A program made the translations under genes and the position numbers. A model generated the notes under the pieces. That model did not search any database. It saw only the letters and a program-made list of their open reading frames with translations, and was not told the origin of the DNA. Positions 44,869 through 54,768 of a stretch of 64,000 nucleotides of DNA are shown here, in pieces. Source of the DNA: Bacillota bacterium (lineage in GTDB: Bacteria; Bacillota; Sulfobacillia; JAUYEG01); NCBI GenBank assembly GCA_030691505.1, contig JAUYEG010000070.1:23777-87776 (forward strand). The letters run 5' to 3'. How positions within the stretch are numbered: position 1 is the first letter of the stretch; each line of letters opens with the position of its first letter.

Positions 44869-46090
44869 CCGCGCCGCGGCCGCAAGGTCGCGGCCGAGCC
44901 TGCGCCTGGTGATTGCGCTGACCCTGATGGGTGTGGCGCTGCTGGCGACGGCTGTCGCGGCTCTGGTCGCCCGGTGGCTTGTCGCCAGGGATATCGGCGC
45001 GCTGCTCGAGGGTATCGGGTGGCGCCCCCCCGGCGGCATCGGCCACGGCATGATGCGCAGCCGGATGCTGCAGGAGCTCTTTGACCGCACCGGCTACGGC
45101 GCCCAGCTGACAAGCAGTATTGTCTACGCCGGCCTTGCGGGGGCCGTCATCGCGGGCGTCGTCGGATACCTGGGCGCAGGTCTCATCGCCCGGCCGCTCT
45201 CCATGCTTTCCGACCGCGTCCGCCGCCTCGCCGCCGGCGACTACGATAGATCACGGAGCACTGACCCGGGCGGCAGAGCGGGGAGCATGGCACCGGGAGC
45301 CAGGTCCAACCCTCCCGCCAGCCACGCGATCGCCGAGGTCAGCGAGATGCGCCAGGCGATCGATACCCTTGCCGGCCAACTGTCCGCGGCTGAAAGCCTC
45401 CGCCGCCGCCTGGTGGAAGACCTGGCGCACGAACTACGCAGTCCGCTTACGGCGGTCCGGGGCTACGCGGAAGGACTGCGTGACGGGGTCTTTCCCGACC
45501 CGGCCCACGCCGTCGCCGGTCTGCAACGCGAGCTTGGGCGGATCGAGAGGCTGATCACCGACCTGCGCAATTCCGCTCTGCCGGGTTCCCCGGCCGAGTT
45601 CTGGCCGGTTGACCTGGGCGAGCTGGCTTCGTCGGTCGCCGCGGGGTACCTCCCCGCGGCCCGCGCAAAAGGCATCGACCTCCAGCTCCAGATCGGTACG
45701 GGCGGCCCGCACGTGGTCCTCGGGGATACCGACCGGCTGGGACAGGTGCTCGCCAACCTGCTCGATAACGCCATCAAGTTCACGCCCGCGGCCGGGGAGG
45801 TGAAGGTCAGCATCGGGCACTTGCCAGGAGATGAGCCGGGGCACATCAGCCTTGCCGTGCGCGACAGCGGCCCCGGCATTCCGGCGCGGGACCTGCCCCA
45901 CATCTTCCAGCGTCTCTACCGGGCCGAAAGGTCGCGGGCCAGAACCACGGGCGGGAGCGGCATCGGCCTGGCAATCGTAAAGCAGATCGTCCTCGGACAC
46001 GGCGGAACCGTTGAGGCCAGCAACGCCGACGGCGGCGGGGCCCTCTTTGTGGTCCGCCTGCCGCAAACAGGGCGGCCCGTTCGAGCCTAG
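44849..46090 (+). CDS. sensor histidine kinase (TM-HAMP-HisKA-HATPase)
   Basis: H-box LAHELRSPLTAV; N, G1 and G2 boxes in the C-terminal half; GTG start with a GGAGGTGG RBS; overlaps the response-regulator gene end. Confidence 0.85.
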   Translation: MSAHPADRAAAARSRPSLRLVIALTLMGVALLATAVAALVARWLVARDIGALLEGIGWRPPGGIGHGMMRSRMLQELFDRTGYGAQLTSSIVYAGLAGAVIAGVVGYLGAGLIARPLSMLSDRVRRLAAGDYDRSRSTDPGGRAGSMAPGARSNPPASHAIAEVSEMRQAIDTLAGQLSAAESLRRRLVEDLAHELRSPLTAVRGYAEGLRDGVFPDPAHAVAGLQRELGRIERLITDLRNSALPGSPAEFWPVDLGELASSVAAGYLPAARAKGIDLQLQIGTGGPHVVLGDTDRLGQVLANLLDNAIKFTPAAGEVKVSIGHLPGDEPGHISLAVRDSGPGIPARDLPHIFQRLYRAERSRARTTGGSGIGLAIVKQIVLGHGGTVEASNADGGGALFVVRLPQTGRPVRA

Positions 46091-47472
46091 CGGCGCGGGG
46101 CCTTGTCGCTGCTGAGGCTGCGGACGCTCTTGACCGTGTTGACCGCGTCCGTCGCCGCCTTGTCTCGGCTGCGCCGGGCGTGCTCGGCCAGCTTCCCAAT
46201 CTCCTCCTGACTAAGAGCGGTGCGGATGAAGCCAGAATCGCCGAGGGCCGCGTTGGGGTCCAGTTGAAGCGCCGCGTGCCACGATGCCGCGGCCTCTTTG
46301 TAGTCGCCCTCACGGAGTTTGACCGCGCCGGCCAGGAGTTTAGGCCGCCCGCTGGCCGGGTCGAGCGCGCTGGCCTGCTCGGCTTTGGCGAGCGCCAGGG
46401 CCAGTTCGCCGCGCCGGAAGCGCAGCTGTCCAAGCTGCACATGGATGTCCGCGCTGGCCGGGTCGAGCTCGGCCACGCGCTGCCAATCCGCCAGCGCCCC
46501 GTCAAAATCCTCACGCATGATCTTTACCGCGCCCAGGTTGACCAGCGCGCGCTTATACTCCGGATCGACCTGCAAGGCCTGTTGCCAGCGCGACATAGCC
46601 CCGTCGAGGTCACCGGTGTCGGCCAGCAGCACGCCCAGGTCAAAAATGGCGTCAGTTTGCTTGGGATCGAGCTCAAGGGACTTCTCCCAGGCGGACCTGG
46701 CCTTGTCCGTCTCGCCCTGCAGGGCGTAGGCCTCGCCGAGGTTGACGTATGTGCGGGGGTCGCCCGGCTCCAGCTCCGCGCAACGCTCGAGCTCCTTGGC
46801 AGCCTCAGGCAGACGCCTGAGGCCCAAAAAAGCCAATCCGAGGTTGTAGTGGACGGTTGGGGTATCCTCTCCTGCCTCTATCGCCCGCATGCACTGCTCA
46901 ATCGCCTTGGGGTAGTCGCGGGAGTCGAGATAGGCCCCGCCGAGGTTGGCGCGCAGCCGGCCGTTGGCGGGATCGATGCGCAACGCCTCTTGCCAGGCCT
47001 CAGCCGCCTTGTCCCGTTCGCCTTTGGCCAGGTAGACCTCGCCAAGGTAGATGTGTCCGAGCGGGTAGCGCGGCTCGGGCTGGATCTCGACATTCTTGCG
47101 CAGGTGGAACACCGCGGCGTCGAGCATGCCCTTGAGCGCGTATACCTTGCCCAGGAAATGGTGCGCCCCGGCGTGCCGCGGATTGAGCTTCACCGTTTGC
47201 TTCCACAGGTCAATTGCCTTGTCAAGGTCGAGCTTCTCGGCGTGCGCGATCCCCAGCAGGTACCACGCGCCCGGGTTGCGCGGATCCACCTGCGTCGCGG
47301 CGCCGAGGTTTTCTATCGCCGCGTCGAAATCCCGCAGCTCAAGAAAGGCCACCCCGAGATCGTGCCGGGCGGCGAAGTTGCGCGGATTTTTCTTCAGGTC
47401 AGCCTGGCACTTGGCGATGATCTTTTCGAGTTCCTCACGTGGCATGTGCATCGGGGGCTGCCCCTCCGTCAT
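46087..47472 (-). CDS. TPR-repeat protein
   Basis: About ten tandem TPR motifs (A..Y.LG.AY...G....A...Y..AL..DP). Confidence 0.8.
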   Translation of the reverse strand: MTEGQPPMHMPREELEKIIAKCQADLKKNPRNFAARHDLGVAFLELRDFDAAIENLGAATQVDPRNPGAWYLLGIAHAEKLDLDKAIDLWKQTVKLNPRHAGAHHFLGKVYALKGMLDAAVFHLRKNVEIQPEPRYPLGHIYLGEVYLAKGERDKAAEAWQEALRIDPANGRLRANLGGAYLDSRDYPKAIEQCMRAIEAGEDTPTVHYNLGLAFLGLRRLPEAAKELERCAELEPGDPRTYVNLGEAYALQGETDKARSAWEKSLELDPKQTDAIFDLGVLLADTGDLDGAMSRWQQALQVDPEYKRALVNLGAVKIMREDFDGALADWQRVAELDPASADIHVQLGQLRFRRGELALALAKAEQASALDPASGRPKLLAGAVKLREGDYKEAAASWHAALQLDPNAALGDSGFIRTALSQEEIGKLAEHARRSRDKAATDAVNTVKSVRSLSSDKAPRR

Positions 47473-47476
47473 GCCA

Positions 47477-47713
47477 TCACCCCCGCTCTCTTTTTTCCTG
47501 TTCTAGCCTTTCCATCAACCTTTTGGTGAAGTCCTGGCGCGGAGTCAGTTGGCCGGCCTTCTGGATCTGGTTGATGGTCTGGGACAGCTCCACGAGGCGG
47601 CGCCGGCAGTGCACGCAACCGCGGATATGCTTCTCGACCATCCGCTCTTCCTCGGCGGTGACCTCGGTGTCAAGGTACGCCTGGAGCCATTGGTAGACCT
47701 CTTCGCACTTCAT
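47477..47713 (-). CDS. zinc-finger anti-sigma factor (ZAS-like)
   Basis: 78 aa, HxxxCxxC motif (HIRGCVHCRRRL), directly downstream of the ECF sigma gene. Confidence 0.65.
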   Translation of the reverse strand: MKCEEVYQWLQAYLDTEVTAEEERMVEKHIRGCVHCRRRLVELSQTINQIQKAGQLTPRQDFTKRLMERLEQEKRERG

Positions 47714-48324
47714 CTGGCCGCACTCCCCTCCACACCGGTGGCGACCGGATACAGCTTACCAAGTTTCCGGCGGAGAATCTCCCGCGCCCTGAAGAGCCGG
47801 GTCTTGACCGTGCCCTGCGGGATGCCCAGCACCCTGGCGATTTCGTCGTAAGACAGGTCCTGCAGGTGGCGCAGGACCACCACCACCTTGTACTTGGGCG
47901 GCAAACCGTTGATGGCCTCTTGCGTGTCGGCCCTCATCTCGCTGAGCTCGTAAATCTTTTCCGGTGCATGGCTCCAATCGGCGACCTGCTGCGGGATGTC
48001 CCCGTCGGGCCCGACGGGTGCATCGAGCGAAGCGACCGTGTGCTTCATCTTGCGAAGCCGGTCAAGACATAGATTTGTGGCAATCCGGTAGATCCAGGGC
48101 GAGAACCGCTCCTCGACGCGGAACGACTCCAGTGACCGGAAGATGTGCAGAAACGTTTCCTGTGCGATGTCTTCCGCCTCTTCGCGGCTGCCGAACATGC
48201 GGTAGGCCAGGTTGTAGATGCGATCCTTGTAACGCAAAACAATCTCGGCGAATGCCTCGGTTTCCCCCCGGCGGCCCGCGCGCACCAGTTCTTCATCCGT
48301 GACCTGCCGCCGGCCCGACCGCAC
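47710..48324 (-). CDS. ECF-type RNA polymerase sigma-70 factor
   Basis: Region 2 (YNLAYRMFGSREEAEDIAQETFL) and region 4 (LSYDEIARVLGIPQGTVKTRL). Confidence 0.85.
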   Translation of the reverse strand: MRSGRRQVTDEELVRAGRRGETEAFAEIVLRYKDRIYNLAYRMFGSREEAEDIAQETFLHIFRSLESFRVEERFSPWIYRIATNLCLDRLRKMKHTVASLDAPVGPDGDIPQQVADWSHAPEKIYELSEMRADTQEAINGLPPKYKVVVVLRHLQDLSYDEIARVLGIPQGTVKTRLFRAREILRRKLGKLYPVATGVEGSAAR

Positions 48325-48326
48325 AG

Positions 48327-48599
48327 CTAGAACCTTCCCGACACAAGCAAAATCCCGATCAGGATAAACAACACCCCGGCGCCGCCCCGGATGAGATGCG
48401 GCGGGGCGTACCGGCTTATCACGCCGCCAAGCAAAACACCGAGCAGTGAGGCGAGCACGAGGGCGGCCGCGGCGCCGACAAAGACGGAGCCGGGCGCCCT
48501 GCTATCGGCCGACAATGCCATGGTGGTCAGTTGCGTCTTGTCGCCAAGCTCGGCCAGGAAGACCAGGCCGAACGTGGTCCACAGAATCCGCCAGTTCAA
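48327..48599 (-). CDS. UPF0016/GDT1-family (TMEM165-like) half-size cation transporter
   Basis: ELGDKTQ signature (E-x-G-D-K-T), 3 TM, 90 aa. Confidence 0.6.
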   Translation of the reverse strand: MNWRILWTTFGLVFLAELGDKTQLTTMALSADSRAPGSVFVGAAAALVLASLLGVLLGGVISRYAPPHLIRGGAGVLFILIGILLVSGRF

Positions 48600-48658: not shown

Positions 48659-49753
48659 TCAGTTTACCACATCGCCGCGGGACATGGCCTGTGGCTCAAC
48701 TGCCCTCACGATTCGGCGCCCGCAGGAGGCGCAGGCCCCCTCCCGCAGCCCCTCCATGGAGACCCCGTAGCCGTCGCGGCGGATGACCGCAGCCCCGCAG
48801 CCCGGGCAGATCGTGTCCGCCGCCTCCACCTCGAACGCGTTGCCGATGTACACATACTGGAGGTGCCGTCGGGCGATGTCCCGGGCCCGCTGGAGCGACG
48901 CCGCCGGGGTCGGGCCCGGCTCGCGCATACGGTAGTTGGGGAAATACCGCGAGAAGTGCAGGGGGATGCCGGGGTTCACCCCCGCCAACCAGCTCGCAAG
49001 CCGCTCGACCTCCTCGGGCGCGTCGTTGAGCCCCGGCACCAGCAGCGTGGTGACCTCGACGTGCGTGCCGGCGGCGTTGGCCATCTCGACGGTCCGGAGC
49101 ACCGGAGCCAGCTGGCCCCGGCAGATATCGCGGTAGAAATCGTCCGTGAAGGCCTTGACGTCCACGTTCATGGCGTCAACCAGCGGCAGTAGCGCCCGGA
49201 GAGGCTCCTCGGCCACGTAGCCGTTGGTCACCAGGACATTGGCCAGGCCGCTTTGGCGCACCAGCAGGGCCGTGTCGTACACGTACTCCCACCATACCAG
49301 GGGCTCGGAGTAGGTGTAGGCAAGTCCAACGGAGCGGCGGCAGCCGCCTGCCTCGATCCCGGCCAACCTGGCCGCGTCGTGGGGGGACAGGTACTCGGTT
49401 TCGGCCTCCTCCTGGGAGATTTGCCAGTTCTGGCAGAAACCGCAGGCAAGGTTGCATCCCACGGTGCCCACCGAAAAGATGACGCTTCCCGGCATGAAGT
49501 GGTAAAGCGGCTTCTTCTCGATCGGGTCAAGGCCGTGGGCCGAGATGCGGCCATAGCTGGTAGCGTGCAGCTGCCCTGCGAAGTTGCGGCGATACCGGCA
49601 CTTGCCGCGGCCGCCCGGGCGGATGTGGCACTCCTGTGGGCACAGCAGGCACAGGACCCCGCCCCGGTCCCCCTCCTCTCCCTCCAGCGGCCGCCACCAC
49701 CGGGCGACGGGGCTCCGCGAGTCATGGCCCTTGTCTCCTGCCGCTCCGGTCAA
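48659..49753 (-). CDS. AmmeMemoRadiSam-system radical SAM enzyme (PflA-like)
   Basis: CLLCPQEC N-terminal cysteine knot plus [11 protein letters not shown] radical-SAM CxxxCxxC; the TTG start overlaps the upstream gene stop (TTGA) and has a GAGGTGGTGAGG RBS. Confidence 0.75.
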
Positions 49754-51198
49754 CGATACCTCACCACCTCGAACCGGTACATGCGGATCCCCGGCTCGCG
49801 CAGCGTCAGCCCGGCTTTGCGGCACGCGATGGCAACCTGCTGGGCCGGCGTGTCGACCCCTTCGAGGTCCGGCAGCAGGAGCCCCCGGCGGGTCTCTTTC
49901 TCAACTATGACCCCGTACCGCTTCGGGTCGAGGTCCAGGAACCCCGAAACGGGCTCCGCCGGCCCGAGCACGTCTACGGAGATCTCCAGCGCGGCGAGCT
50001 CAGCGGCGTCAACGGGATCAAACCGCGGATCGTCGGCCGCGGCGGCAATGGCGTTGTGGATAACCTCTTCGCCAAGGGTTGGGCGCGTTGGGGCGATGGT
50101 CCCGATGCACCCGCGCAGCTCCCCGCGTTTCCTAAGCGACACAAACGCGCCTGCGCGTTCGGGCAGGGACGCCTCGGGCGCAACTCCGGCCGGCGGCTCC
50201 ACCACGCGGCCCTCGCGGACGTAGGCATCAATAGCAGATCGCGCCAGCTCAACCAGCGGGTGGGCTTTGGCCCCGGCGGACGCCACGCCTGCTGTGCCGT
50301 CGCTTGCGTCAGGTAGGCCTTCCCCACGCGCACCGGCCGCGCCGTCCGCCCCCCCGGAGCCGTCCGGGCGGCGGAAAGCGACGACGGCATAGCCGACACC
50401 AAACGGCCCCTCATACGAGAGGACCTGGGGTTGGAGGCCCGCCTCGACGACGCCGCCGAGCATGATGAGCAGCGGGCGCAGACCGCACTCCCCGGCCCGC
50501 CTTATCAGCTCACGGTCCATGTCGAGCAGCTTCGAAGCGTCGCCAGCGGCCAGCGCGTCGACGACCGTGCGATCGAAGACGCCCGCCTTTTCGTCGAAAC
50601 CCGCCGGAGCGCCGGGCTTCAGGCGATGCGAGAGATCACCGCTGGCGACCAGCGCGACCAGCCTGCCGGAGCGGGCGGCGGCGGCGGCGATGGACTGCCC
50701 AAAGCGATAGCAGGTCCGGTAGTCAAGGACCGCCATGCTGAGCGGGACCACCCGGCCGGAATACCCTGCCGCGTGCAGGTAGTAGAGCGGGACGAGAGTG
50801 GCGTAGTCCAGTACACCCTGCCACTTCGCGCTGCCCCCAGCCCCCCCGACTTCCGCCACCTCGAGCCCCGCCTCCCCCGCGGCGAGCTTGATGTCGCGAA
50901 GGAGCCCAACGTCGCCCTGCCACCTTAGCCTGACCTGAGGCGCCCCGAAGTCCGCGAAATCGCCCTCTAAAGTGGCGCCGCCGACCGCTGCGAACGCCCG
51001 GCTCATCACAGGACCGTGCGGGCCGACGATGATAACGGTCTGCGGGGCAGCCCGCACAAGCTCAGCCGCAAACCGGCGCATGCCCTCAACCGTCCGGGCG
51101 GCGCGCCCGATATCCCCCCCGCCGACCTCAGGGATGATGATCGGGGGGTGCGGGACAAGCCCGCCGAATACCAGCCCCCGCTGATGTGCAGTCAACAA
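49750..51198 (-). CDS. LigB/Memo-superfamily (class III extradiol dioxygenase-like) domain fused to a C-terminal AMMECR1 domain
   Basis: N-terminal half: [18 protein letters not shown] motifs of the LigB/Memo fold. C-terminal half: [24 protein letters not shown]1 signature. TTG start after GGAGGGGG chosen. The ORF-track 5' extension overlaps the neighbouring gene. Confidence 0.7.
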
Positions 51199-51305
51199 TG
51201 CCAGCCCCCTCCAGAGCACGTGCCGAACATGTCGGCAATTCGGGATCAAGGCCAAAACTTTCCTGCACACGAGTTTTCCCGCGGGCCGTTGGTTTGATGT
51301 CGCGG

Positions 51306-52055
51306 CTATTGCGGCCGCCAAGCGGGCTGAGGGGCGTGCCTGAAGTACTTCGCCAACCCGCGGCACAGCGCCCAGGCGATGGCCCGCTGCCCGTCCGGCG
51401 TGACCATCAGCGAGAGATCCTGCGGGTTGGTCATGAATCCTATTTCCGCGCATGCCGCGGGAACCGTGAGGTTCTTGAGGATGTACTGGCGCTGGTCCAC
51501 AACCATCACACGGTTGGTCCCGAATGACGCCGACAGTTCCTCCTGGAGGAAAGAGGCCAGCACCCGGTTGGACGGGTCCACGACGTTGTTGTAGAAAACC
51601 TGCGGCCCCCGCCACTTGGGCGCTGGAAAGCTGTTGGCGTGGATGCTCAGATACACGTCGGGCATGACCTCGCCCGCCATCTGCAGGCGGCGCGATAGGT
51701 CCGTGAGCTTCATCTTCCCCGGAATGGGCTCCGACAGGTCGACGTCCGTCTCGCGGACCATCACTACGACCGCTCCCGCTTCCTGGAGCAGTTCACGCAG
51801 CGTCAAGGCGACGGCGAGAACGACGTCCTTCTCCTCATGCCCACCGGCGGCCGCGCCGGGGTCGCGGCCCCCATGCCCGGGGTCCAGCATGACGAGCTTG
51901 CCGGCAAGCCCGGCGGCAGGTTGGACCAGCGGGCCGGGGGCCGGGTCGCCGCCCAACACCGCACTCACAAGTTTGGGCGCAGCCCAGTATGCCGTCAGCA
52001 CTGCACACAGCAGTGCCAGAAGCTTTGTTCGACGCGCGGTGAATACTCGACGCAT
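51306..52055 (-). CDS. cwlD: germination-specific N-acetylmuramoyl-L-alanine amidase (Amidase_3)
   Basis: Signal anchor plus [13 protein letters not shown]...SIHANS motifs; ~240 aa; the conserved position near rplM-rpsI, as in Bacillus, supports cwlD. Confidence 0.75.
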
Positions 52056-52148: not shown

Positions 52149-53597
52149 TTGGACGAAGGGGGACCCCCACTGGCCGAGCAAGCCGCAACTGACGGTCCGG
52201 TTGGGGACCGGATTCGCCGGCGCCGCCGTGAGCTAGGCATGACCCAGACCCAGCTCGCGGGAAATCGCTATTCCAAGAGCTACGTAAGCATCATCGAATC
52301 CGGCCGGGCAAGGCCGTCGGCCCAGGCGCTCGATTTCTTCGCCGCGCAACTGGACAAACCGGTCGAGTATTTTCGCCGTGACCAATCCACCCAGGCGTCG
52401 ACCCTGCGCTCTCTCCTCGCCGCGGCGCAGGCGTGCATCCGGCGGCGTGACTTCGCGGCAGCCGAGGAGAGACTGCGCCAGACGGCCGTGCTGGCCATGG
52501 CCCTCGACGATCCGGCGCATCTCGGTCGGGTCCACGACATTGCCGGCCACCTGTTCGTTGCGACCGGGGATCTACAGTCCGCGATCATGGCCTTCCGCGA
52601 AGCGATCACGGTCTACGCCGCCGCCGGGGCAATGGATTCAGTCGCGGCGGCCCGGTGCTCGCTGGCCAACGCCTTTTTCTTGAGCGGCGACATGAAGGCG
52701 GCGCTGGCCGAGACCAAGGCCGCCCAGGACGTCTACGCCGGTCTTGAGCCCAACCACCTGGTCCTCGGTCGCAGCTACCTTCTGGGAGGCAACGTCGCCA
52801 GCGCGACCGGCTGTCATGAAGCCGCAAGGCGTTGCTTTGAACAGGCCCTGTCCCTCATGGCCGGACGCGACGTGCTGGGCCTTGGCGAGACCCACGCCGC
52901 GCTCGGTTTTCACGCCCTCCGCCGCGGCGAGTGGGAAGAAGCCCGGGGCGGCTTCCAGGAGGCACTAAGAATCCTTGAGGGAGTCGGCGACTTCCACTTC
53001 CTGTCCGTCATCACAAGACACCTGTCTGAGGCTCTTTTCCGCTGCGGGGACCTGCAGCACGCGGCGGACATGACGCGGCGTTCCGGCAGCCTGAGCGCAT
53101 CGATCGGCGATCAGCACGGGGTCGTATGGGCCACGGTGCGTCTGGCCGAGCTGTCCTTGCCTGCCGGCGACCTGCCCACGGCGCGGGCCGCCGTCGCGGA
53201 GGCTCGCAACCTGCTGAAACAGCCCGCCCAAGCGAGCGAAGGATCGGGGCCGGAGTCGGAGGTGGAGGCGGAGGCGACGCAGAGGCTGCTGGGGGCAAGA
53301 GTGTGCCGCGCCGCGGCAGGCCTTTCGCACAGGGATGGCGATGTGGACTCGGCGATGCGTCACCTGCGGACCGCAATCGACCTTCTGGCGGGATGGCAAG
53401 CCGGCGTGGGCATGCACATTGGGCTGTGCCGGCAGCTGGCAGCCCTTCTGTGGGGGGCTGGACGGCACGATGACGCGGTCTTGTACTACGAACTCGGGCT
53501 GACGACCGCGGAGAACGCACAGCCTCGGGAGGCAGCAGGGCCGGACCCGGTGCGCGAACTGGCCCGGATGCCGTCGCCGCTGTGGTTTAGGAGCTAG
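52149..53597 (+). CDS. XRE-family HTH + TPR-like domain transcriptional regulator
   Basis: N-terminal HTH (RRRRELGMTQTQLAGNRYSKSYVSIIESG) followed by ~400 aa of alpha-helical TPR-like repeats. Confidence 0.75.
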   Translation: MDEGGPPLAEQAATDGPVGDRIRRRRRELGMTQTQLAGNRYSKSYVSIIESGRARPSAQALDFFAAQLDKPVEYFRRDQSTQASTLRSLLAAAQACIRRRDFAAAEERLRQTAVLAMALDDPAHLGRVHDIAGHLFVATGDLQSAIMAFREAITVYAAAGAMDSVAAARCSLANAFFLSGDMKAALAETKAAQDVYAGLEPNHLVLGRSYLLGGNVASATGCHEAARRCFEQALSLMAGRDVLGLGETHAALGFHALRRGEWEEARGGFQEALRILEGVGDFHFLSVITRHLSEALFRCGDLQHAADMTRRSGSLSASIGDQHGVVWATVRLAELSLPAGDLPTARAAVAEARNLLKQPAQASEGSGPESEVEAEATQRLLGARVCRAAAGLSHRDGDVDSAMRHLRTAIDLLAGWQAGVGMHIGLCRQLAALLWGAGRHDDAVLYYELGLTTAENAQPREAAGPDPVRELARMPSPLWFRS

Positions 53598-53822: not shown

Positions 53823-54218
53823 CTAGCGCTTCGAGAACTGAGGCGCCTTGCGGGCCTTCTTGAGTCCGTACTTGCGCCGCTCCTTTACCCGAGGGTCTCG
53901 GGTGAGCAGTCCAGCCTTCTTGAGCACGTGTCTGAACTCACCGTCGGCGCGTGTCAGTGCCCGCGATATTCCGTGCCTGACCGCACCCGCCTGCCCATGA
54001 AGGCCGCCGCCGTGGACCTTAGCCGCGACGCCGAAGCGGCCCTCGGTTTCCGTCAGCCGGAACGGCAGCGAGAGTTGTGACATCATCGACTCTCCCGGGA
54101 AGTAGACCTCCGCGGGCTTCCCGTTGACCTGCATCTCGCCGAGGCCACCGGGGATCAACCTCACGCGCGCGACAGCCGTCTTGCGCCTGCCGGTCGCGCT
54201 CACATCTGGCTCCGCCAA
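53823..54218 (-). CDS. rpsI: 30S ribosomal protein S9
   Basis: [10 protein letters not shown]...[19 protein letters not shown]...[15 protein letters not shown]. Confidence 0.95.
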
Positions 54219-54243
54219 ATCCTCTGCACCTCTTTTTTGGCCC

Positions 54244-54678
54244 TTACTCCTCGATGACGAGTGCTTCCGGTCTTTGCGCCTGGTGGGGGTGCACGGGACC
54301 GCGATATACCTTTAGCTTACGGTAGAGCTTGCGGCCCAGCCTGTTGTGCGGCAACATCCCCTTGACCGCAGCCTCAACCGCCCGCTCGGGATGCGTCTTG
54401 ATCAACGTCTCAAAGGTGGTCTTCCTCAGCCCTCCGGGGTAGTTGGAGTGACGGAAGTAGAGCTTGTCCTTTGCCTTGTTGCCGGTCACCATGACCCGCT
54501 CCGCGTTGACCACGATCACGAAGTCCCCGGTATCCATATGGGGGGTGAAGATCGGTTTGTGTTTGCCCCGCAGAACCTTGGCTACCTCACTGGCCAGGCG
54601 CCCGAGTACCTTGCCGTCGGCGTCGACCACGAACCATTTCCGATTGATATCCTGTGGTTTGGCCGTATAGGTCGACAA
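54244..54678 (-). CDS. rplM: 50S ribosomal protein L13
   Basis: [19 protein letters not shown]...; TTG start with GAGGAGG 9 nt upstream. The ORF-track N-extension is not L13-like. Confidence 0.9.
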
Positions 54679-54739
54679 TTGGACTATCCTCCTCGCGCGC
54701 ACGACATGCCCTTTTCCTGGCCTGAAGACATACGCATAT

Positions 54740-54768
54740 ATCTTAGGACACGGTGCCAAGCGTGTCAA
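54740..54768 (-). promoter_or_regulatory. sigma-A promoter of rplM-rpsI (TTGACA-17 nt-TAAGAT on the minus strand)
   Basis: rc of 54763-54768 is TTGACA and rc of 54740-54745 is TAAGAT, with a 17-nt spacer, about 55 nt upstream of rplM. Confidence 0.55.

Follow-up and report, generated by a model that had tools for sequence, protein, structure and literature searches.

An intact AmmeMemoRadiSam locus with fused LigB-type and AMMECR1 domains in a Bacillota genome

Introduction

Conservation of AMMECR1 and MEMO1 extends from archaea to humans, and both are tied to human disease without an established biochemical function. The bacterial three-component AmmeMemoRadiSam system, defined by TIGR04335 (component A), TIGR04336 (component B), and TIGR04337 (radical SAM enzyme), is the most promising route to that function. 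The fusion of AMMECR1 with a dioxygenase and its radical SAM gene neighborhood were published in 2007 by Balaji and Aravind (PMC2034487), where RGChG and DxRa are given as predicted active-site cleft signatures of AMMECR1 and where the pathway proposed below, including its cysteine relay, had already been inferred. In archaea, the genes linked to AMMECR1 are those for PIN/zinc-ribbon and NFACT proteins, not LigB (PMC2034487, PMC4075521). Literature searches found no functional characterization of the AmmeMemoRadiSam system, in agreement with an earlier sequence-only reading of the DNA studied here, which had called its function still unknown.

Here, a copy of this system is described in a 64-kb stretch of Bacillota DNA (64,000 nt; hereafter, the window). 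The locus is already known: NCBI names its products ‘AmmeMemoRadiSam system protein A’ (MDP2871933.1) and the system radical SAM enzyme (MDP2871932.1). Because of these names and of the fusion reported in 2007, the locus adds little by itself and is a correct but routine example. The survey of its relatives contributes a modest extra: a LigB/TK2203-like B part with intact His-His-Glu(+Cys), naturally split pairs, a lineage-dependent radical SAM partner, and a link to anaerobes.

Results and Discussion

Organization of the locus

The sequence of the locus originates from a MAG. Both AmmeMemoRadiSam genes lie on the minus strand, with the fusion gene upstream and the radical SAM gene downstream, and they share the four-nucleotide TTGA overlap that had been noticed earlier. 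The features are as follows.

51306-52055: Amidase_3 neighbor gene; best NCBIfam match CwlD, 167 bits, under the model cut-off of 221.55
51205..51212, minus strand: GGAGGGGG, a putative Shine-Dalgarno-like run, read from the sequence, upstream of the fusion TTG 51198/51195
49750..51195, minus strand: fusion gene (LigB-type domain, linker, and AMMECR1 domain), 481 aa plus stop; exact match to NCBI MDP2871933.1
49750..49753, minus strand: TTGA overlap, 4 nt, between the radical SAM TTG start (49753-49751) and the fusion TGA stop (49752-49750)
48659..49753, minus strand: radical SAM gene, 364 aa plus stop; TIGR04337, PF04055; NCBI MDP2871932.1
48327-48599: GDT1/UPF0016 neighbor gene, 90 aa; PF01169, 86.7 bits

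The start of the fusion gene differs between NCBI (TTG 51195, 481 aa) and the Logan gene call (TTG 51198, 482 aa). From either codon, the reading frame is free of stops down to 49753, so that no in-frame stop separates the two domains, a separation that the sequence-only reading had named among the results that would refute it; the same fusion recurs in thousands of homologues. For the radical SAM gene, the 364-aa product from TTG 49753 is the one annotated by NCBI, although the longest ORF would begin at GTG 49825. A Shine-Dalgarno-like GGTGAGG run is present at 49759-49765, near the TTG start. Judged from the sequence, the fusion and radical SAM genes are predicted to be translationally coupled. 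The pair is located, as had been stated, between the UPF0016 gene and the cwlD-like gene.

No second stand-alone Memo/LigB or AMMECR1 gene was detected in the 64-kb window with family HMMs built from the fusion protein. An Rfam scan around the operon gave no credible match, the single sub-threshold hit being a mammalian lncRNA family (16.8 bits vs 90), and at the gathering threshold no riboswitch or other RNA element was found in the whole window. Promoter and terminator scans were uninformative, as they gave about as many matches as shuffled controls did.

N-terminal LigB-type half

The N-terminal half of the fusion protein is a predicted metal-binding domain with the following conserved residues.

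50359..51177, minus strand: predicted LigB/TK2203-type metal-binding domain, approximately residues 7-279
51148-51150, minus strand: H16, conserved in at least 90% of 114 homologues
51016-51018, minus strand: H60, invariant in 114 homologues
50626-50637, minus strand: D187 and H190 in SGDLSH, both invariant in 114 homologues
50485-50490, minus strand: E236-C237; C237 invariant and E236 conserved in at least 90% of 114 homologues

The sequence-only reading had described this half as Memo/LigB-like; it is better described as LigB-type than as Memo proper. Pfam LigB (PF02900) matches the fusion protein with 128 bits (E 4.6e-37; cut-off 26.3), whereas Pfam Memo (PF01875) reaches 25.8, below its gathering score of 27, and the MEMO1-family model NF001987 reaches 26.5 against a cut-off of 295. 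TIGR04336 does pass its cut-off of 26, with 35.4 bits for the fusion protein and 38.6 bits for the isolated half; of the 270 profile positions, this match takes in only ~142-250 and is thereby confined to the C-terminal 40%. The weak and partial TIGR04336 match and the sub-gathering Pfam Memo score count against regarding the locus as an ordinary copy of the system. In the AF2 model (pLDDT 90.9), the closest PDB fold to this half is TK2203 (5hee; target TM-score 0.86), and target TM-scores are 0.70-0.86 for TK2203/LigB folds compared with ~0.55 for MEMO1. The N-terminal half is nearer to TK2203 and the classical LigB dioxygenases than to MEMO1.

Inspection of the histidines and cysteines, which had been suggested as a check for a metal site, shows that H16, H60, and C237 are conserved and that E236 aligns with the LigB-type Glu ligand. 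In a profile alignment, H16, H60, and E236 fall onto H13, H62, and E251 of the aminophenol dioxygenase beta subunit, and H190 falls onto the His of its LSH motif. At the sequence level, the half carries the hallmarks of class III extradiol enzymes: the PF02900 domain contains both the 2-His-1-carboxylate triad and the catalytic-type His. Ring-cleavage equivalog HMMs score far under their cut-offs (HpaD, 30.8 vs 315.95; PRK13365, 24.2 vs 299). All six residues (H16, H60, D187, H190, E236, and C237) are identical in 25 Acidobacteriota; in 53 other loci, H16, H60, D187, and H190 are kept, while E236 and C237 each vary in three.

Linker and AMMECR1 domain

The two halves are joined by a disordered segment, and the C-terminal half is an AMMECR1 domain, as had been recognized from its motifs.

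50275..50358, minus strand: low-complexity Gly/Ala/Asp-rich interdomain linker, residues 280-307; pLDDT <50
49753..50274, minus strand: AMMECR1 domain, residues 308-481; PF01871, 152.5 bits (1e-44) vs 25; TIGR04335, 135.9 vs 99
50107-50109, minus strand: C363 of the LRGCIG motif (residues 360-365), which has an invariant core
Residues 389-392: DPRF motif of the AMMECR1 domain

The linker varies widely in length and composition across homologues and reaches ~170 aa in the longest. Extra domains were considered for the long homologues (535-634 aa) and rejected, as these proteins just have longer low-complexity linkers or tails. With a pTM of 0.62 and a disordered linker, the AF2 model of the fusion gives an unreliable interdomain geometry. 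LRGCIG and DPRF correspond to the RGChG and DxRa signatures, and none of the residues R361, G362, C363, G365, D389, R391, and F392 varies among 114 homologues or among 78 loci.

Radical SAM enzyme

The product of the downstream gene matches TIGR04337 with 332.2 bits (cut-off 220) and PF04055 Radical_SAM with 73.8 bits. It carries three cysteine motifs, including the CLLCPQEC sequence and the CX3CX2C cluster motif reported earlier, both of which are present.

49598..49651, minus strand: N-terminal four-Cys motif C35-x2-C38-x3-C42-x9-C52 (CLLCPQEC...C)
49433..49456, minus strand: radical SAM cluster motif C100-x3-C104-x2-C107 (CNLACGFC), invariant across homologues
48722..48808, minus strand: C-terminal zinc-ribbon-like CPGC...CASC (C316, C319, C341, C344)

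Among 48 orthologues, the four-Cys motif (C35/C38/C42/C52) is 98% kept, and among 117 homologues it does not vary; it may bind an auxiliary metal or Fe-S cluster. CPGC...CASC is invariant in 117 close homologues and kept in ~70% of a broader ORF set that includes truncated ORFs. The AF2 model is confident (pLDDT 92.4, pTM 0.91), and its closest PDB structure is PflA, with a target TM-score of 0.77. Outside its own family, the best HMMs are PflA (60.5 bits), YjjW activase, and NrdG; the cut-off of the glycyl-radical activase model TIGR02493 is 231.75, far above the 60.5 bits obtained. A Pfam scan of the flanking genes gave no glycyl-radical enzyme that could be its partner.

Distribution and gene neighborhoods

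That the system is widely conserved, as previously claimed, is borne out by the fused LigB-AMMECR1 architecture, which occurs in no fewer than 593 species genomes and 931 clusters (50% identity). Homologues sharing 77% and 74% identity have it as well; each of the 8000 candidates scored was significant, and the best 120 listed all show the architecture. Next to the fusion gene, the radical SAM gene is found in 33 of the 36 loci from Bacillota and in 7 of the 10 from Chloroflexota. Natural split pairs of LigB-type and AMMECR1 genes occur in three loci (L016, L027, and L036), one of which, L016, is a three-gene array of radical SAM, LigB, and AMMECR1. Across 84 related loci, no further LigB-type ORF was detected, and the sole extra AMMECR1 match is a 77-aa fragment in L008.

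A different arrangement is seen in 26 Acidobacteriota loci and a few others, where the radical SAM gene is absent within ~8 kb and all catalytic residues are kept. Since the Acidobacteriota loci retain these residues without that neighbor, their sequences suggest that the fused domains can apparently function without an adjacent radical SAM partner. In 25 of the 26 Acidobacteriota loci, a gene of the geranylgeranyl reductase family (TIGR02032, 168.8 bits; cut-off 158.8) adjoins the fusion gene in divergent orientation. The other conserved neighbors in Bacillota are ecfA, truA, rplM, rpsI, a cwlD-like gene, and arg genes, which, by their gene order, appear as housekeeping synteny; the neighbors in Chloroflexota and Symbiobacteriaceae are unrelated. 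The adjacency of cwlD was considered as a functional link and set aside as being of low probability: 14 of the 36 Bacillota loci show it, but it agrees with a conserved gene order along the chromosome, and the system is also frequent in lineages that lack this neighbor.

The hosts bear on the chemistry of the N-terminal half. AMMECR1 is found in 50.7% of anaerobic and 3.4% of aerobic bacteria (PMC13386939), and because it marks anaerobes so strongly, the LigB-type “dioxygenase” half probably works without O2.

Probable joint action of the components and alternative explanations

The identity of the locus as an AmmeMemoRadiSam system is practically certain, and it is very likely that the three components act jointly in one pathway. 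As a whole, we consider it likely, with good confidence, that the locus is an ordinary intact copy in the common two-gene form whose components act in this joint manner. In favor are the three family HMMs above their cut-offs, the agreeing Pfam domains, the matching NCBI names, the TTGA overlap, the radical SAM adjacency, the split pairs, the conserved catalytic residues, the alignment of the His-His-Glu triad with that of aminophenol dioxygenase, the two confident AF2 models with TK2203, PH0010, and PflA as their best PDB matches, the enrichment of AMMECR1 in anaerobes, and the pathway inference of 2007.

Alongside the component identities, intact catalytic motifs, gene coupling, and conserved co-occurrence documented here, a course of reaction can be proposed. 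The LigB-type B component would provide a predicted metal site (His16/His60/Glu236), catalytic-type Asp187/His190, and the invariant Cys237, and the flexible linker would tether it to the AMMECR1 A component, whose cleft would contain Cys363 of RGCIG. The three activities may form one complex working on one substrate, to which the fusion and fission of A and B and the coupled genes point indirectly. In this scheme, SAM would be converted by the radical SAM enzyme to the 5'-deoxyadenosyl radical, which would take a hydrogen atom from the substrate in the AMMECR1 cleft; Cys363 might then act as a covalent or radical relay, and the LigB-type metal center could perform a step on the same molecule, proposed as O2-independent because the system is typical of anaerobes. 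This specific chemistry (hydrogen abstraction by the radical SAM enzyme, Cys363 relay, and O2-independent metal step) is tentative and rather doubtful. For the substrate, an RNA base and an isoprenoid chain have been predicted in print.

Other roles can be envisaged for the same proteins. The radical SAM enzyme might have the fusion protein as its target and modify it post-translationally, for instance at Gly362/Cys363 in the RGCIG loop, yielding a radical or modified-residue cofactor. Its nearest characterized relatives, the glycyl-radical activases PflA, NrdG, and YjjW, do act on protein; the top PDB fold is PflA, with the peptide-bound form 3cb8 included; both genes are tightly coupled; and G362-C363-x-G365 is invariant. 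Against this, every activase model falls far under its cut-off, glycyl-radical enzymes have a fold unrelated to that of AMMECR1, and RGCIG is equally invariant in the 25 Acidobacteriota homologues without a radical SAM gene nearby. RGCIG is also kept in eukaryotic AMMECR1, and eukaryotes are not known to have the AmmeMemoRadiSam radical SAM enzyme. Modification of the fusion protein is considered quite unlikely. A transfer reaction on RNA, as put forward by Balaji and Aravind in 2007, appears unlikely as well: the radical SAM and dioxygenase-like enzymes would make a group that AMMECR1, bound to RNA through its RAGNYA sheets, passes on to a base by way of the conserved cysteine. In favor of such a reaction are the RAGNYA fold, the cysteine cleft, and the archaeal neighborhoods with NFACT and PIN RNase (PMC2034487, PMC4075521), together with the C-terminal zinc ribbon of the radical SAM enzyme, a common nucleic-acid-binding module. 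However, the proposal is purely context-based, RNA-processing genes show no consistent linkage across the bacterial loci examined, and both HMM and fold place the radical SAM enzyme with PflA, not with MiaB or RlmN.

The Acidobacteriota loci suggest yet another substrate. The system might modify a polyprenyl or isoprenoid chain, using the radical SAM enzyme in anaerobes and a flavin-dependent partner of the geranylgeranyl reductase family in aerobic Acidobacteriota, where none of the 25 loci with the adjoining reductase gene has a radical SAM gene nearby. Memo-clade gene contexts have also reportedly been tied to isoprenoid modification. Nevertheless, a single lineage (Pyrinomonadaceae/Blastocatellia) accounts for all 25 loci, and gyrB, recF, dnaN, and dnaA are conserved neighbors there too, so the adjacency may be plain synteny; moreover, the reductase gene is divergent rather than operonic, and the surroundings of the system contain no isoprenoid gene, be it in the window, in Bacillota, or in Chloroflexota. 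An isoprenoid substrate is considered distinctly improbable. Very improbable is the broader proposal that the fused B component, instead of being Memo, is a separate LigB/TK2203-like lineage whose third metal-ligand position is taken by a Glu-Cys dyad, that it serves anaerobes as an O2-independent metalloenzyme next to a radical SAM enzyme, and that aerobic Acidobacteriota swap the radical SAM enzyme for a flavoenzyme of the geranylgeranyl reductase family. If true, it would point to a polyprenyl/isoprenoid substrate for the whole AMMECR1/Memo system, human disease proteins included. Finally, the MAG origin and the strong match to Pfam LigB only could be taken to mean that the fusion is an assembly or sequencing error, or that its LigB half is an unrelated aromatic-catabolic dioxygenase merely adjacent to AMMECR1. 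The ORF is continuous, the same architecture recurs across the species genomes and clusters counted above, equivalog dioxygenase models fail widely, and the system is enriched in anaerobes; this explanation is effectively refuted and retains almost no probability.

Comparison with known systems

The top sequence match to the N-terminal half is the stand-alone LigB-type protein TK2203 from Thermococcus kodakarensis (88 bits with the profile). The two share 21% identity, and TK2203 lacks the AMMECR1 fusion and has Asp-Ser in place of Glu236-Cys237. Class III extradiol dioxygenases (LigB, DesB, HpaD/DHPAO, and aminophenol 1,6-dioxygenase) align in fold, His-His-Glu triad, and catalytic His. Yet, the fused family differs from them by the additional invariant Cys237, the AMMECR1 fusion, and its mostly anaerobic hosts; because of these hosts, O2-dependent ring cleavage is implausible. 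Human MEMO1 (3bcz, 7kq8, 7l5c) is a member of the same superfamily with a His/His + Cys metal site, and the weak TIGR04336 and MEMO1-family matches also connect it to the protein described here. However, its identity is 12% and its target TM-score ~0.55, and it was not retrieved by the fusion-family profile at E <= 10.

The C-terminal half shares its motifs and 32-38% identity with the AMMECR1 proteins PH0010 (1vaj) and MM0484 (1zq7), although these are stand-alone archaeal proteins; PH0010 shows 38% identity in the Foldseek structural alignment and is matched by phmmer too. For the radical SAM enzyme, PflA (3c8f, 3cb8, 8fo0) is both the nearest solved structure and the nearest characterized HMM match, but with 17% identity, and the enzyme here adds the N-terminal four-Cys motif and the C-terminal zinc ribbon.

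In comparison with the fusions of Balaji and Aravind (PMC2034487), the neighborhood, the fusion, and the RGChG and DxRa motifs are the same and nothing substantive differs; the radical SAM enzyme was termed MiaB-related there, whereas here it is closest to PflA. The locus agrees with the AmmeMemoRadiSam system in that the cut-offs of all three component models are passed and that A, B, and the radical SAM enzyme are co-located in one cluster of adjacent, coupled genes. It differs in having A and B in a single polypeptide, a common variant, and in a B part that is LigB-like rather than Memo-like.

Gene organization and family assignment

The fusion gene and the radical SAM gene both lie on the minus strand of the window, in the following setting:

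46087–47472 (−), 461-aa protein with TPR repeats throughout, following the anti-sigma gene
47477–48324 (−), SigW-like ECF sigma factor gene (47710–48324; NF007223, 195 bits, cut-off 209), then an overlapping 78-aa zf-HC2 anti-sigma gene
48327–48599 (−), single-domain GDT1/UPF0016 gene, 90 aa (PF01169, 86.7 bits)
48659–49753 (−), radical SAM enzyme gene, 364 aa, with the 3′ end of the ORF at 48659
49750–51195 (−), LigB-type/AMMECR1 fusion gene, 481 aa
51306–52055 (−), Amidase_3 gene (best model CwlD, 167 bits against an equivalog cut-off of 221.55)
52149–53597 (+), XRE-type HTH plus TPR/MalT-like regulator, 482 aa, between the cwlD-like gene and rpsI/rplM
53823–54768, rpsI/rplM

The placement between a UPF0016 gene and cwlD proposed in the sequence-only reading thus holds, with GDT1/UPF0016 downstream and the amidase gene, scoring below the CwlD cut-off, upstream. 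The stop region of the GDT1 gene abuts the start of the sigma factor gene, and no second GDT1 half-gene lies beside it. Among the related loci, just two (L005 and L007) have a GDT1 gene after the radical SAM gene.

The only plausible starts of the radical SAM ORF are GTG 49825 and TTG 49753. Since the latter has GGTGAGG upstream of it and overlaps the TGA stop (49752–49750) of the fusion gene, the TTGA overlap said to couple the two genes is genuine. The fusion-gene frame is open from 51615 (−), but the first stretch overlaps the preceding amidase gene; the actual start is therefore TTG 51198 or 51195, just downstream of a GGAGGGGG run. No stop codon interrupts the frame between this start and 49753, so the two domains are encoded in one polypeptide, and the LigB/Memo-type and AMMECR1 motifs quoted for it are present. 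Long ORFs antisense to both genes, e.g., 49253–50224 (+), of up to 323 aa, were rejected as genes; they seem conserved across loci only as the shadow of conserved genes in GC-rich DNA.

Family models matched by the two products (score/cut-off, bits)
Fusion gene, Pfam LigB: 128/26.3
Fusion gene, Pfam AMMECR1: 152.5/25
Fusion gene, TIGR04335 (protein A): 135.9/99
Fusion gene, TIGR04336 (protein B): 35.4/26, profile positions 142–249 of 270 only
Radical SAM gene, Pfam Radical_SAM: 73.8/29.5
Radical SAM gene, TIGR04337: 332.2/220

All three TIGR models proposed as a check scored above cut-off, TIGR04336 over part of its length. With these matches and the uninterrupted frame, neither failed matches nor a break between the domains, the two grounds for rejecting the reading, was found.

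Structure of the fusion protein

An AlphaFold2 model built from 114 homologues is confident in both domains (mean pLDDT 90.9), which are joined by a disordered linker (residues 280–307); a pTM of 0.62 leaves their mutual orientation undefined. Linker length and composition differ widely among homologues, with up to ~170 low-complexity residues in the longest. The N-terminal half most resembles TK2203 (PDB 5hee; target TM-score 0.86), followed by aminophenol, dihydroxyphenylacetate, gallate, and protocatechuate dioxygenases, whereas MEMO1 is clearly more distant (target TM-score ~0.55, 12% identity). Likewise, the profile of this half matched TK2203 (88 bits) and classical dioxygenases in the PDB but did not find MEMO1 at E ≤ 10. 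The earlier observation and interpretation are correct, except that this half, described as LigB/Memo-type, is better named LigB/TK2203-type than Memo proper.

Inspection of the proposed metal site showed that the counterparts of H16, H60, and E236 in aminophenol dioxygenase beta are H13, H62, and E251, the iron ligands of that enzyme, and that H190 of SGDLSH aligns on a catalytic-type His. E236 is now and then replaced by Gln, and the adjacent C237 is invariant in the 114 homologues. From this alignment, the putative site resembles a LigB triad to which a Memo-like Cys has been added. The AMMECR1 domain that makes up the C-terminal half is of the standard kind: it shares 38% identity with PH0010, and its RGCIG and DPRF motifs are invariant.

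Structure of the radical SAM enzyme

The radical SAM enzyme was modeled with very high confidence (pLDDT 92.4, pTM 0.91). Among solved structures, PflA comes nearest (target TM-score 0.77, 17% identity); none from the enzyme's own family was found. The quoted motifs are present, and three Cys elements were located:

C35-x2-C38-x3-C42-x9-C52, N-terminal four-Cys motif (CLLCPQEC...C), conserved
C100-x3-C104-x2-C107, SAM cluster motif
CxxC...CxxC, C-terminal ribbon, conserved

The protein carries an N-terminal extension of ~30 aa (49654–49753, −) absent from most homologues (330–350 aa); it is mostly modeled at pLDDT 87–96, with residues 1–6 alone below 50.

Genomic context and split versions

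The context of 82 related loci was surveyed:

Bacillota, 36 loci: radical SAM gene adjacent in 33, nearly always directly downstream of the fusion gene
Chloroflexota, 10 loci: adjacent in 7, directly upstream
Acidobacteriota, 26 loci: adjacent in 0; divergent geranylgeranyl-reductase-family gene in 25

In 14 of the 36 Bacillota loci, the fusion gene is preceded on its own strand by a cwlD-like gene, often only ~100–360 bp away, as part of a conserved ecfA-truA-rplM-rpsI...arg neighborhood. Neither the window nor any related locus contains a second LigB/Memo gene. The sole extra AMMECR1 match is a 77-aa ORF fragment (L008:10759–10989) from a Dehalococcoidia MAG, located ~1.4 kb downstream of the fusion gene there.

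Natural split pairs of LigB-type and AMMECR1 genes occur in three loci (L016:7995–9338, L027:7857–9416, and L036:7905–9347), where the linker contains a stop codon (TGA, TAA, and TAA, respectively), after which the AMMECR1 gene begins anew behind its own ribosome-binding site, e.g., AAAGGAGGGGTAATGAATG in L036. The halves retain their TIGR04336 and TIGR04335 matches, and L016 is an array of three genes: radical SAM, LigB-type, and AMMECR1. Because the downstream gene restarts in the same frame in all three, the pairs suggest recent fission by nonsense mutation or fusion by stop-codon loss. These versions point to the LigB-type protein as the B partner within this branch and show that the pair can both fuse and split, a classical, if indirect, argument that A and B may form a physical or functional complex.

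Proposed function

The three catalytic modules of the locus are intact, are inherited and translated together, and are often fused; we infer that they act on one substrate. The radical SAM enzyme would supply a 5′-deoxyadenosyl radical for hydrogen abstraction from a substrate bound in the AMMECR1 cleft, where Cys363 might serve as nucleophile or radical relay, as proposed for the cleft cysteine (PMC2034487), and the LigB-type metal center could perform a further step. PF01871 occurs in 50.66% of 1,293 anaerobic but 3.38% of 4,227 aerobic bacteria, with the top feature-importance score among seven anaerobe-indicator Pfams (PMC13386939); O2-dependent ring cleavage by the "dioxygenase" half is therefore unlikely in most hosts.

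An RNA base and an isoprenoid chain are about equally weak candidates for the substrate. The isoprenoid reading draws on the Acidobacteriota loci, where the reductase-family gene adjoins the fusion gene in L080 (1303–2538; TIGR02032, 168.8 bits against a cut-off of 158.8) and 24 others. No radical SAM gene lies within ~8 kb in these loci, yet all catalytic residues of the fusion protein are kept. The neighbor could reflect a partner swap or plain synteny, since the loci belong to one lineage whose conserved neighbors also include gyrB, recF, dnaN, and dnaA. Work by Burroughs from 2019 reportedly supports the isoprenoid reading as well. For the RNA base, cysteine-mediated modification has been predicted (PMC2034487). 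A third candidate is self-modification of the system, an activase model in which the radical SAM enzyme would act on the fusion protein.

Comparison with known systems

Exact-sequence look-up at NCBI showed both products already deposited, from a single 100-kb contig of a "Bacillota bacterium" MAG. The fusion protein (481 aa) is entered there as MDP2871933.1, "AmmeMemoRadiSam system protein A", and the 364-aa product starting at TTG 49753 as MDP2871932.1, "AmmeMemoRadiSam system radical SAM enzyme". The AMMECR1-dioxygenase fusion and its radical SAM neighborhood were described by Balaji and Aravind in 2007 (PMC2034487). The fused architecture is very widespread. In a 90%-identity database, each of the 8000 candidates scored was significant, and the top 120 were all two-domain proteins of 434–588 aa. 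When clusters at 50% identity were searched exhaustively with HMMER, 931 representatives had E ≤ 1e-30, the best 150 all two-domain, and a pattern scan covering one genome for each species confirmed at least 593 encoding loci, with Bacillota, Chloroflexota, and Acidobacteriota among the phyla represented. The literature searched yielded no reported biochemical function for AmmeMemoRadiSam proteins. What AMMECR1/Memo systems do is a genuine and important question, but the window offers no better means of testing it than do thousands of other genomes. Collectively, the locus is an ordinary, previously annotated member of a published system.
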